From Candidatus Staskawiczbacteria bacterium (GTDB taxonomy: Bacteria > Patescibacteriota > Minisyncoccia > Minisyncoccales > Staskawiczbacteraceae), in assembly GCA_963761865.1 (NCBI GenBank), contig CAVXIE010000002.1:274595-338594 (forward strand): 64,000 nt of DNA. The letters are read 5' to 3'. A model generated the notes under the pieces. That model did not search any database. It was not told where the DNA came from and saw nothing but the letters and a program-made list of their open reading frames with translations. The position numbers and the translations under genes are program-made. The first letter of the stretch is position 1. Every line of letters starts with the position of its first letter. This document shows, piece by piece, positions 5,623 through 55,107 of the stretch.

Positions 5623-5688
5623 TTAGCTTTTAGCTTATAGGTGTTAGCTTATAGTCAAAACTAAAAGCCAAAACCTAGAAGCTAAAAA
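5623..5688. repeat. TAG/CTA-word palindromic element (family C)
   Basis: ttttagcttataggtgttagcttatagt / actaaaagccaaaacctagaagctaaaa, about 24 of 28 complementary. Confidence 0.7.
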
Positions 5689-6979: not shown

Positions 6980-6996
6980 CAATGAACGCAAGTAAA

Positions 6997-7023
6997 AATC
7001 GCCGATAAAAACGGCGATTTTTA
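6997..7023 (+). terminator. intrinsic terminator
   Basis: aatcgccg/cggcgatt hairpin plus T-run. Confidence 0.65.
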
Positions 7024-7061
7024 CTTGCAGAACATTTTCATCGCTTCTGGACCTCCTTTGT

Positions 7062-7286
7062 TATGGAGAGGGAAAGGAGCAGAACAGGCGTATCGTCTAC
7101 ATCGAAGCGCGTACGGTGGCTATGCGGGGTGTTTGGGACGAAGCCAAGCAGAAGATCGTGCCGTCCAAGGATACGGACGATGGCCTGATCAAGAATTGGC
7201 TTGCGGCCATGGTCTTCTCGAAACTGTTCCCTGCGTTACAAGTAAGCCGGGAAGATAGAGTTTCGTCGTTCGACCCGCCGGCATGA
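7062..7286 (+). pseudogene. GC-richer fragment resembling the 3' end of a foreign gene
   Basis: frame 3 reads ..EQNRRIVYIEARTVAMRGVWDEAKQKIVPSKDTDDGLIKNWLAAMVFSKLFPALQVSREDRVSSFDPPA*; no plausible start; composition unlike flanks. Confidence 0.3.
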
Positions 7287-7415
7287 GGAAAACCTTCAGC
7301 CGCAGTTCACAAACCACACTGCGAAATCAAAAGTGGATGATATATTTTAAAGGCCCAAGGATGGTTATCCAAGGGCTTTTACATTGTACAAAAATCCGCT
7401 AATACAACGCCCCGA

Positions 7416-7447: not shown

Positions 7448-7590
7448 TAAAATTCCAAATTCTTGATACTTACTTCTTAATACTTAATTCTCGTATCGGG
7501 CTTTTATTTCGTACAATTATCTGTTATAGTTACCAATAATCACCAGAGATATTGACTATTATATATATTTTTGTTAGTATCTATTCATTG

Positions 7591-7833
7591 ATGCAAGAAG
7601 CTATAAACAGCGAACAAAATTCTAAAAAGATATTCAAACTGGAAGGCAGAGTTATGGAGGCTTTACCAAACGCCTCTTTTAAAGTATTGTTGCCCGACGG
7701 CAGAGAAATTCTGGGATTTTTATCCGGAAAAATGAGATTGAATAAAATCAAAATTTTGGCCGGTGATAAAGTAACTTTAGAAATGACTCCCTATGATGTA
7801 AATAAAGGGAGAATAGTATATAGACTAAAGTAG
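7591..7833 (+). CDS. infA: translation initiation factor IF-1
   Basis: KLEGRVMEALPNASFKVLLPDGREILGFLSGKMRLNKIKILAGDKVTLEMTPYDVNKGRIVYR; ATG at 7591 preferred over track start. Confidence 0.9.
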   Translation: MQEAINSEQNSKKIFKLEGRVMEALPNASFKVLLPDGREILGFLSGKMRLNKIKILAGDKVTLEMTPYDVNKGRIVYRLK

Positions 7834-7952
7834 CTAATTAACCTAATTATTCTAATTGACCTAATCAAATCCCAGTACACATGTCAAAATTGGAAATTAG
7901 GATTTAGGCATTATTTAGAATAATTAGAGCAATTAGTATAATTAGAATAATT
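7834..7952. repeat. CTAATTAG-word inverted-repeat element, ORF-less copy (family B)
   Basis: collinear with both arms of the element at 54629-55103; fills the infA stop to rpmJ start gap. Confidence 0.75.
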
Positions 7953-7955
7953 CAC

Positions 7956-8072
7956 ATGAAAGTACGACCATCGGTAAAAAAAATTTGTAATGACTGCAAA
8001 ATCGTCAAACGAGAGGGTTGTATTTATGTTATTTGCAAAAAGAATCCAAAACATAAACAAAGACAGGGCTAA
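7956..8072 (+). CDS. rpmJ: 50S ribosomal protein L36
   Basis: [38 protein letters not shown] (38 aa, below the ORF-track cut-off). Confidence 0.9.
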
Positions 8073-8508: not shown

Positions 8509-8510
8509 AC

Positions 8511-8579
8511 GAGCCGCAGCGAAGACTTACCCCGCCCTCTATGCTAGATGAGAAATTCAAAAGCTTAGAGGGCGGGGTA
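8511..8579. repeat. GC-stem palindromic element (family A)
   Basis: gagccgcagcgaagactt + taccccgccctcta (8528-8541) ... tagagggcggggta (8566-8579). Confidence 0.85.
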
Positions 8580-8609
8580 ATAATTAATTCACTACGTTCA
8601 TAAATTATT

Positions 8610-9668: not shown

Positions 9669-9695
9669 AATAATAAAGGTAAAAAAATTATTAAC

Positions 9696-9770
9696 TTGGT
9701 GTTCGATGTTAGGTGTTCGGTAATCGTCTTTCGACGTACCTAGCACCTAAAACCTAATACCTAAAAACTA
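9696..9770. repeat. TAG/CTA-word palindromic element (family C)
   Basis: ggtgttcgatgttaggtgttcggta ... tacctagcacctaaaacctaatacc, tip hairpin cgtc/gacg. Confidence 0.6.
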
Positions 9771-9773
9771 ATT

Positions 9774-32786: not shown

Positions 32787-32908
32787 TCTAATTAATCTAA
32801 TTATACTAATTGATCTAAATAAATCCTAAATCCCAATGTTCAAAAGTTTAGGAGTTAGCTTTTAGGATTTGATTAGAGTAATTAGAAATTAGAATAATTA
32901 GAATAATT
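32787..32908. repeat. CTAATTAG-word inverted-repeat element, ORF-less copy (family B)
   Basis: collinear with both arms of 54629-55103; loop begins cccaATGTTCAAAAG. Confidence 0.75.
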
Positions 32909-53628: not shown

Positions 53629-54633
53629 ATGAAAATTGCTTTCTTCGAAATAGAAAATTGGGAGACAGAATATCTAAAAAACCAGTATAAAAATGATGAA
53701 GCCGTTTTTTTCCCTGAAAAACTTTCTTTGGAAAATATCGGTCTGGTTAAAGATTGTGAAATAATTTCTGTGTTTACGGACTCGCGCGTAGATGAAAAAA
53801 TAATTTCCCAACTGCCAAATGTAAAAATGATTGCAACGCGCTCAACGGGTTTTGATCATATAGATTTAGTTCAGGCAAACAAACAAAAAATCACGGTGTG
53901 CAATGTACCAATCTACGGTGAAAATACCGTTGCCGAACATACTTTTGCATTATTGCTCGATTTATCCAGAAATATTTATAAATCAATTCAAAGTGTCAAA
54001 GAAAAAGGTTTTTCGGTGCACGGGTTGCGAGGATTTGATTTAAAGGGTAAGACATTGGGAATCATCGGTACCGGTCACATTGGAAAGCACATCGCCAGAA
54101 TTGCAAAAGGTTTTGAAATGAATGTTATTGCTTTTGATCCGTTTCCGGATAAAAAAGCGGCAAAACAGCTTGATTTCAAATATGTTTCAATGGAAGAATT
54201 GTTGAAAAATGCCGATGTGATTACTTTGCATGTTCCCGATAACGAAAAAACTCACCATTTGATAAACTCAGGGAATATAAACTTAATTAAAAAAGGTGCG
54301 TATTTAATCAATACTTCGCGTGGTGGCATTATTGAAACTGCGACTTTGGTCAGCGCGCTGGATTGCGGAATTCTAGCCGGCGCAGGACTGGATGTGTTGG
54401 AGGGCGAATGCGATATAAAAGAAGAAAGCCAGCTTTTATCAAAAGAACTGCCGGCAACCTGTGATATACGAACAATGTTACAAGATCATATGTTAATGGA
54501 ACGTGATAATGTGATAATCACTCCGCATAACGCATTTAACTCAAAAGAAGCCCTGGAAAGAATTTTGGAAACCACGGTAGAAAACATTAAGGCGTTCGAA
54601 AAAAATAAACCAATCAACACTGTAAATTTCTAA
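53629..54633 (+). CDS. D-isomer specific 2-hydroxyacid dehydrogenase (D-lactate dehydrogenase-like)
   Basis: GIIGTGHIGKHIA NAD motif, NTSRGGII, ITPHNAF. Confidence 0.85.
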   Translation: MKIAFFEIENWETEYLKNQYKNDEAVFFPEKLSLENIGLVKDCEIISVFTDSRVDEKIISQLPNVKMIATRSTGFDHIDLVQANKQKITVCNVPIYGENTVAEHTFALLLDLSRNIYKSIQSVKEKGFSVHGLRGFDLKGKTLGIIGTGHIGKHIARIAKGFEMNVIAFDPFPDKKAAKQLDFKYVSMEELLKNADVITLHVPDNEKTHHLINSGNINLIKKGAYLINTSRGGIIETATLVSALDCGILAGAGLDVLEGECDIKEESQLLSKELPATCDIRTMLQDHMLMERDNVIITPHNAFNSKEALERILETTVENIKAFEKNKPINTVNF

Positions 54634-55103
54634 TTAACCTAATTGTTCTAATTATTCTAATCAAATCCCAATGTCTAATGACAAAAAAGAAAATAAATAT
54701 GATTTAGAAGAGCGAACAGCCAAATTTGGAGAAAATATCATAAATTTTGCAAAAAGTATTCCAGTAAATTCGGTTACCCAAAGAATTATTCCGCAGTTGG
54801 TGGCATCTGGAACATCGATGGGTTCAAACTACTGTGAGGCAGATGACGCAGAATCCGGCAGAGACTTCAAGCATAAGATTGGAATATGCAAAAAAGAGGG
54901 CAGAGAAACAAAATATTGGTTAAGGATGGTTGCGACAGCAGCTCCAGAGTTGAAAAATGAAGCAAAGATTTTTTGGCAGGAAGCAAAAGAATTACACTTA
55001 ATATTTAATGCTATCTATAAAAAAGTCGGTAAAAAATAATTTAGGGTTTAGTAATTAGTCATTATTTAGGTTAATTAGTATAATTAGATTAATTAGAATA
55101 ATT
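54629..55103 (+). mobile_element. CTAATTAG-word inverted-repeat cassette carrying a four-helix-bundle ORF (family B, full-length copy)
   Basis: left arm 54629-54670, ORF 54671-55039, right arm 55040-55103; ORF-less relatives at 7834-7952 and 32787-32908. Confidence 0.6.
54671..55039 (+). CDS. four-helix-bundle protein (23S rRNA intervening-sequence protein family)
   Basis: PQLVASGTSMGSNYCEADDAESGRDFKHKIGICKKEGRETKYWLRMV matches the family core recalled as QLxRSxxSIxANxxEg...S..DF..K..I..KE..ET.YWL. Confidence 0.85.
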   Translation: MSNDKKENKYDLEERTAKFGENIINFAKSIPVNSVTQRIIPQLVASGTSMGSNYCEADDAESGRDFKHKIGICKKEGRETKYWLRMVATAAPELKNEAKIFWQEAKELHLIFNAIYKKVGKK

Positions 55104-55107
55104 CGTT

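Follow-up and report, generated by a model that had tools for sequence, protein, structure and literature searches.

Short intervening sequences (IVSs) lacking an open reading frame (ORF) are known from the rRNA of Salmonella, Yersinia, Campylobacter, and others. They are gene-less, A+T-rich hairpins of about 100-150 nt, are distributed sporadically among relatives, and are tolerated because the RNA can be cut harmlessly. The Correia elements of Neisseria are RNase III-processed MITEs, which are small, have terminal inverted repeats, and occur as dozens of intergenic, co-transcribed hairpins, possibly with outward promoters. They duplicate a TA target and have no periodic-unit arms, and we know of no partner gene of the PF05635 family for them. 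REP and REPIN sequences are dispersed intergenic palindromes with strand polarity and without target duplication, REPs being short, G+C-rich palindromes that flank a Y1 gene. Considering the PF05635/TIGR02436 family, its members are four-helix-bundle (4HB) proteins that were first found in 23S rRNA IVSs and are homologous to the DGR accessory protein Avd. To our knowledge, the arrival of IVSs in rRNA and the role of the PF05635 ("S23p"/Avd-like) protein have lacked an explanation for over 30 years.

The IVS in helix 45 of the Coxiella burnetii 23S rRNA contains tandem heptamers in a 28-bp stem, within which RNase III cleaves it (PMC4990558). The ORF-bearing 23S IVSs of Coxiella and Leptospira have a long terminal stem made partly of short tandem units, carry a PF05635 gene in the sense orientation without a promoter of its own, and show neither a target duplication nor a known mobility enzyme (PMC4990558). 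Inverted arrays of the heptamer GGGAATC were described between aligned ORFs of Xanthomonas and Nostoc, where they are abundant and transcribed (Rehm et al. 2015; PMC4692102). These are paired convergent arrays just after a stop and just before the next start, with no gene inside; they are G-rich and were interpreted as forming G-quadruplexes, and the study contains no link to PF05635 cassettes and no analysis of filled and empty orthologous sites (PMC4692102).

Here, a stretch of 64,000 nt (the window; assembly GCA_963761865.1, contig CAVXIE010000002.1, positions 274,595 to 338,594) from Candidatus Staskawiczbacteria bacterium, an ultra-small CPR bacterium, was analyzed. Its genome of ~1 Mb is called G000 (contigs C1, C2, and C3), and its relatives are called G003-G024 and so on; all genomes are metagenome assemblies. 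We found that the infA-rpmJ spacer in the window consists of one non-autonomous copy, devoid of a gene, of a palindromic insertion element that occurs genus-wide; this element, named family A, is scattered through the host and its relatives. Family A shares with the ORF-bearing IVSs the stem partly of short tandem units, the promoterless sense PF05635 gene of its full-length copy, and the lack of a target duplication and of a known mobility enzyme. The infA-rpmJ copy differs from them in lying in a protein-gene spacer instead of an rRNA helix, in having no gene, and in having 9-nt instead of 7-nt units, and its excision by RNase III is putative. With the short ORF-less IVSs it shares its size, composition, hairpin form, and sporadic occurrence, whereas family A resides in mRNA spacers, is multi-copy and dispersed, and has defined terminal repeats. 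Small size, terminal inverted repeats, dozens of copies, intergenic position, and hairpin formation are common to family A and the Correia elements, as would be co-transcription and, possibly, outward promoters. The placement of gene-free paired arrays from stop to start resembles that of the GGGAATC arrays, and dispersal, polarity, and the missing target duplication resemble REP/REPIN, although the gene flanked by the arms of family A encodes a 4HB protein.

The infA-rpmJ locus thus presents an IVS-kind element in an ordinary operon spacer, where the setting is simpler. Within the genus, gene-less copies number in the dozens and have a single-gene partner whose ends are identical; filled and empty sites occur naturally, and conservation between species is well above that of ribosomal-protein genes. 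In the literature on periodic-arm cassettes or gene-less derivatives in CPR bacteria, we found no publication linking gene-less arms, 4HB cassettes, and rRNA IVSs.

Architecture and Predicted Fold of the Element

The earlier note on this DNA was right that the block exactly fills the gap between infA and rpmJ (table 1). It is A+T-rich and contains no ORF. The note had named the cassette after the octamer CTAATTAG, a misnomer, since the window contains no exact match to it; the unit has nine bases, the left arm being built of CTAATTNNN and the right arm of NNNAATTAG. Family-A ends are AATTATTCTAATT...AATTAGAATAATT, enclosing arms that are inverted arrays of 9-nt CTAATTNNN units. The termini of the infA-rpmJ copy fit AATT(A/T)TTCTAATT...AATTAGAATAATT, and in the alignments the last infA codons replace the usual terminal unit AATT(A/T)TT of the left arm.

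Table 1. Features of the infA-rpmJ element and of related family-A copies (window coordinates)
Feature	Position	Strand	Remarks
infA	7591..7833	+	Open frame from 7552; likely ATG 7591; stop TAG 7831-7833 adjoins element
Gene-less family-A hairpin element	7834..7952	+	119 nt; occupies whole infA-rpmJ spacer
Element left arm	7834..7874	+	Period-9 units CTAATTAAC, CTAATTATT, CTAATTGAC, then CTAATCAAATCCCA
Element loop/center	7875..7898	+	24 nt, gtacacatgtcaaaattggaaatt; by alignment, shortened form of the gene-less-subfamily loop
Element right arm	7899..7952	+	AGGATTTAGGCATTATTTAG, then inverted period-9 units; terminus AATTAGAATAATT
Promoter-like TTTAGA-17-TATAAT	7914..7942	+	In right arm, 13 nt 5' of rpmJ ATG; 10/12 match
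rpmJ (L36, 38 aa)	7956..8072	+	ATG 7956, 3 nt ('cac') past element end
Second gene-less family-A copy	32788..32908	+	Between frr and rseP; fold z = -5.5; 78% identical to infA-rpmJ copy
ORF-bearing family-A cassette	54630..55105	+	Between ldh-like dehydrogenase gene and trxB
4HB gene, 122 aa	54671..55039	+	PF05635 / TIGR02436 (E 2.6e-10, E 1.1e-17); PDB 2RLD (E 1e-11)

The RNA fold of the spacer, which the note had proposed to predict, was one long imperfect hairpin with an MFE of -26.5 kcal/mol (z = -3.7). Its stem comprised ~30 pairs with internal loops, and the ~21 nt preceding the rpmJ ATG were unpaired in the MFE fold. None of the Rfam covariance models matched 7834-7952 at E <= 0.1. The promoter-like sequence in the right arm might, as a possibility only, serve rpmJ: in this AT-rich region 7 such matches were counted where 4.5 were expected, so that promoter-like matches around the element were near the shuffle expectation.

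The center of the element had been read as the first codons of the ORF joined to the sequence just after it. As worded, this was not supported. Only 'ATGTC' of the central piece matches the ORF start. The loop motif ..CCCAATAAGTGAATGTCAAAATTAGAAATTAGG.. is common to gene-less copies at other loci in five other species and is a few bases shorter in the infA-rpmJ copy, which therefore descends from a lineage that was already gene-less. Reading the ATG as a relic of the ORF was also weakened: it lies in the inner stem, in which AAATCCCAATG is paired to CATTGGGATTT, and belongs to a GAATGTC motif that the gene-less copies have in common.

Several other observations were made around the operon. A promoter-like TTGACT-17-TAGTAT (with TG) is located at 7552-7591 and ends 10 nt 5' of the likely infA ATG. 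Shine-Dalgarno motifs are absent from rpsM, rpsK, rpoA, and rpmJ, which suggests that translation in this organism may start in a leaderless-type manner or on leaders that are very short. A stretch of ~370 nt with about 50% G+C (7030-7400) follows a terminator hairpin (6988-7028) and precedes the infA promoter region; neither a long ORF nor an Rfam match at E <= 0.1 was found in it, and it could represent what is left of a gene or else an RNA not yet described.

Copies in the Genome and the ORF-Bearing Cassette

Three copies had been reported from the window, whereas family A occupies ~12 loci in the whole genome. The claimed collinearity with both arms of the ORF-bearing cassette was borne out (37 of 41 nt identical on the left, 42 of 52 on the right), and the arms are also collinear with the copy between frr and rseP. 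This similarity exceeded the low-complexity background, against which the note had set its claim: a 15-nt arm pattern (with at most 3 mismatches) matched 19 times in the window and 5.7 +/- 2.1 times in shuffled sequences, none of which reached 19, and the matches were concentrated at the three loci starting at 7834, 32788, and 54630. In the cassette, the stop codon TAA of the ldh-like gene (54631-54633) lies inside the first CTAATT unit. The loop of the frr-rseP copy (32839-32865) contains TTAGCTTTTAG units of another, period-7 family, which suggests nesting or chimerism between hairpin families.

The best match to the infA-rpmJ copy within G000 was only 79% identical; thus, no recent movement is seen in this genome itself. 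Complementarity between different copies was as high as that inside a single copy, and so there is no copy-specific co-evolution of the arms.

Distribution and Conservation across the Genus

The CTAATT array pattern was present in 19 of 26 genus genomes. Pattern CTAATTNNNCTAATTNNNCTAAT had 7-138 matches in 14 genomes, with the maximum in G013, while the reversed control had 0-1; the number of family-A copies per genome reached ~45, also in G013. In 7 other species, the same arms enclose a gene whose protein is 69-86% identical to that of the window, and these cassettes are located at different junctions. In total, 8 genomes encoded a protein at least 69% identical to that of the window, in G019 broken by stop codons. 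All 8 genomes with the family-A 4HB protein also held arrays, and the seven array-less genomes had no such protein, while six genomes with 10-39 array matches lacked a cognate 4HB gene. Overall, gene-less copies outnumbered genes by about 10-45 to 1.

Full-length gene-less matches to the infA-rpmJ copy were found in G024, where the copy precedes a response-regulator gene (93% identical), in G007 at rpsQ-rplN (92%), and in G014 (89%). Further gene-less matches at 85% were located in G019 (rplD-rplW) and in G010 and G006 (rpsL-rpsG). The best matches in other species thus sit at junctions that are non-orthologous to infA-rpmJ. Between the matched species, fourfold-degenerate sites were 31-56% identical, that is, saturated, and flanking coding DNA was 65-86% identical. 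For a non-coding element at non-orthologous sites to be conserved above ribosomal-protein genes, it has to be under strong constraint or to have passed between species recently. This conservation speaks for an active or constrained element and not for a decaying one.

The copies were also polar. Among those in relatives whose strand could be called, 19 were sense and 3 antisense (binomial p about 0.001), and the orientable copies in G000 were all sense. Sense copies had their ..AATTAGAATAATT end 1-28 nt 5' of a same-strand start codon. This polarity would be expected if the copies descend from cassettes in sense orientation, if insertion is strand-specific, or if the element has a role at the RNA level. 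All 19 predicted pairs of family A were invariant, so that there was no covariation. In a G:U test of selection at the RNA level, the sense fold was weaker than the antisense fold in 34 of 47 gene-less hairpins (23 of 33 in G000 and 11 of 14 at infA-rpmJ of relatives), while ORF cassettes had no strand bias in fold stability (16 of 28). This weaker folding on the sense side gives no hint that selection acts on the sense RNA.

Insertion History of the Junction

The infA-rpmJ junction had been described as normally only a few nucleotides long. This is true for 9 of 29 relatives, whose spacers measure 0-12 nt; in most of the others the spacer is 51-204 nt long and holds hairpins of different units (CATTGACA, TAGGTGT, GGAACAT, TAGAAAA, CGCAGAT, and others). 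Family A was found at this junction in none of the 29 relatives, so a spacer conserved in all of them, which would have spoken against a repeat, was not observed; a 4HB gene was not found there either. The rpmJ-rpsM and rpsM-rpsK junctions behave alike, all three being filled in some genomes and empty in others. Together with ldh-trxB, they hold hairpins of some family in roughly two thirds of the species. At ldh-trxB, G000 has the ORF cassette and G003 a gene-less family-A copy, ~eight species have an empty site, and ~15 other hairpins fill the site in other genomes. Because the junctions are filled or empty among relatives, they have been colonized repeatedly and no junction needs an element.

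At infA-rpmJ, the element is a secondary insertion or took the place of an earlier occupant. To judge from the alignments, it came from a lineage that was already gene-less and is nearly unchanged across species. Its exact fit into the gap might be taken for targeted insertion. We did not accept this reading, because G000 is 87% coding and in such a genome only insertions confined to the tiny spacers survive. For annotators, these results call for caution, as much of what is labeled "leaders" and "spacers" in the ribosomal operons of CPR bacteria consists of insertions and not of regulatory RNAs. In this ribosomal operon, 3 of 5 junctions carry inserted hairpins. The rpsM-rpsK spacer (8509-8609) holds a palindrome with a G+C stem, ACCCCGCCCTCTATGC...GCTTAGAGGGCGGGGT (z = -6.5), and the rpsD-rpoA spacer (9669-9773) is a hairpin of TAGGTG/CACCTA units (z = -5.1).

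Relation to MITEs, IVSs, and REPINs

The infA-rpmJ copy had been regarded as a classical MITE produced by internal deletion. Part of this description stands, as the element is a gene-less member of its family, is non-coding and smaller than ~500 bp, and has terminal inverted repeats, dispersed copies, and filled and empty orthologous sites. On the other hand, this copy is no private deletion product, the element sharing family-A ends encodes only the PF05635 4HB protein, and no transposase gene with matching ends was found. No target-site duplication was seen at the copies in G000 or at 30 copies in relatives, where flanks are A+T-rich and a duplication of 1-2 nt could hide. With a partner ORF that is not a transposase and without target duplication, the classical definition of a MITE does not apply. 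As in IVSs, the termini pair into a long predicted stem and some family members carry a sense PF05635 (S23p) ORF, but the element sits between the protein genes infA and rpmJ and not at the tip of an rRNA helix. The repeats do not match the ends of a Y1 transposase, as those of a REP/REPIN-RAYT system do.

Reverse transcriptases were also considered as mobility enzymes and rejected: the three in G000 are of the DGR type with their own Avd, and none adjoins a cassette. One belongs to a complete DGR at C3:1851-4700, which comprises a target gene whose variable region is C-terminal, a gene for an Avd-like protein of 118 aa, a template repeat, and a reverse transcriptase of 389 aa. The two other DGR-type genes are located at C1:73383-74381 and C3:116265-117038.

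Origin and Persistence of the Element

Taken as a whole, we consider it probable that the spacer is a selfish, IVS-type palindromic element from a gene-less lineage, which was inserted secondarily, has a stem that is probably cut by RNase III, and is tolerated in the operon. The element would be co-transcribed with infA-rpmJ-rpsM. Its arms would fold into an imperfect stem of ~30 bp that brings the infA stop near the rpmJ start, and the final ~20 A/U-rich nt would be left free for initiation at rpmJ. By analogy with rRNA IVSs, the RNase III of this genome, whose rnc gene is present, probably cuts the stem. Being either harmless or cut, the stem would cost the operon little; this is probably why the element is tolerated in the spacer, where it would persist as selfish or near-neutral DNA. 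A 4HB protein acting in trans would be the obvious candidate for its mover. The rnc gene (C1:27718-28365, minus strand) is itself bracketed by periodic-unit hairpins of two different families (C1:27607-27694 and C1:28383-28470). These may recall the autoregulation of rnc through a cleavable leader hairpin; given the hairpin density, chance is possible.

There are other potential explanations of the spacer. The hairpin might serve the host, as a stabilizer or processing site of the mRNA, as a device that uncouples or recouples translation of infA and rpmJ, or as an outward promoter of rpmJ, its membership in a repeat family being incidental. The frequent occupation of infA-rpmJ, rpmJ-rpsM, rpsM-rpsK, and ldh-trxB by some hairpin in so many species would agree with such a role, as would the 19:3 orientation relative to transcription, a sequence conservation far above neutral, the promoter-like sequence in the right arm, and the position of the 3' end 1-20 nt 5' of a start codon in nearly every copy. 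We nevertheless regard a host function as unlikely, because G010, G011, G009, and G006 have all these junctions empty, the same sequence lies upstream of unrelated genes, the antisense strand folds better than the sense strand, and promoter-like matches hardly exceed those in shuffled sequence. It is also conceivable that an ORF cassette at infA-rpmJ lost its gene by internal deletion and that the gene-less form never moved. Loss of the ORF at a fixed site is plausible from the two forms at ldh-trxB, broken and fragmentary 4HB genes occur in the genus, and the orientation bias could be inherited from sense-oriented cassettes. Yet the whole element, including the loop, shares 89-93% identity with gene-less copies that other species have at different junctions, which means that the gene-less form predates the insertion at infA-rpmJ. 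Together with the absence of a 4HB gene from this junction in every relative and the great excess of gene-less copies over genes, this makes decay in place very improbable.

A mover other than the 4HB protein was sought in the single IS200-type Y1 transposase gene of this genome (C2:521649-522083), in which case the element would be REPIN-like, mobilized by a Y1/HUH enzyme acting on single-stranded DNA, and the 4HB gene would be cargo. Such enzymes act on hairpins in a strand-specific manner and leave no target duplication, as the polarity and the missing duplication would require. However, the Y1 gene is single-copy and is bounded by end hairpins of its own, which are G+C-rich and bear no relation to the CTAATT arms, and in the loci examined the arms always travel with 4HB genes and never with a Y1 gene. 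We therefore rejected this transposase as the mover and give the REPIN-like reading hardly any credit. A broader proposal concerns all gene-less hairpins and 4HB cassettes, which might form one active, strand-specific mobile system that jumps between co-existing CPR species without a classical transposase, lands preferentially in transcribed stop-start junctions or existing hairpins, and uses the Avd-like 4HB protein as a trans-acting mobility factor. It might even follow an RNA route, with release by RNase III and copying back by a DGR-type reverse transcriptase. Such a route would explain the sense polarity, the enrichment in rRNA and ribosomal-protein operons, the absence of target duplications, and the turnover of families at the same junctions. 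We offer this proposal as speculation with a small chance of being correct, separate from the selfish IVS-type element favored above for the spacer itself.

Periodic-Arm Hairpins and 4HB Cassettes as a Wider Class

Family A belongs to a larger set of sequences. When inverted array pairs with units of 7-10 nt were scanned for under strict settings, the 1-Mb genome yielded 25 and shuffled sequence 0; by eye, ~40 such pairs of at least eight unit families were recognized in G000. The second 4HB gene of G000 (C3:72689-73050) is flanked by period-7 TAGCTT/TAGGTT arms of a different repeat family, gene-less hairpins of which also occur in the window, for example, at 5624, 26283, and 44792 and in the rpsD-rpoA spacer. 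Across the genus, 25 of 26 genomes contained 1-9 4HB genes each. In most of the 28 + 20 loci examined, the gene was in sense orientation, extended from stop to ATG, and was bracketed by inverted arrays, with units of 7-9 nt in the set of 28. The array unit varies by lineage yet tracks the subfamily of the 4HB protein across species, and G019 contains two identical cassettes separated by 3 kb. The full-length members of the class are promoterless cassettes, with one PF05635 gene between periodic arms, that occupy stop-to-start positions in operons and also rRNA helices.

The 23S rRNA gene of G000 measures 4871 nt against a model of 2925 positions and has a ~500-nt insert in helix 25 (C2:367962-368462), a classical IVS site. 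The arms of this insert are period-7 arrays (AAATTC/AAAATAC...) built like those of the cassettes. No 4HB gene was found in its interior, which holds only a G+C-richer stretch with broken minus-strand frames. Further large inserts must exist farther along this gene.

Two junctions elsewhere in the genus look like hot spots with lineage turnover. Upstream of one conserved gene (start M..TQDFLEIKDIREG), 4HB cassettes of four lineages occur across eight species, including G013, G018, G007, G019, G024, G010, and G003, and the junction after fpg (mutM) holds two cassette lineages in five species.
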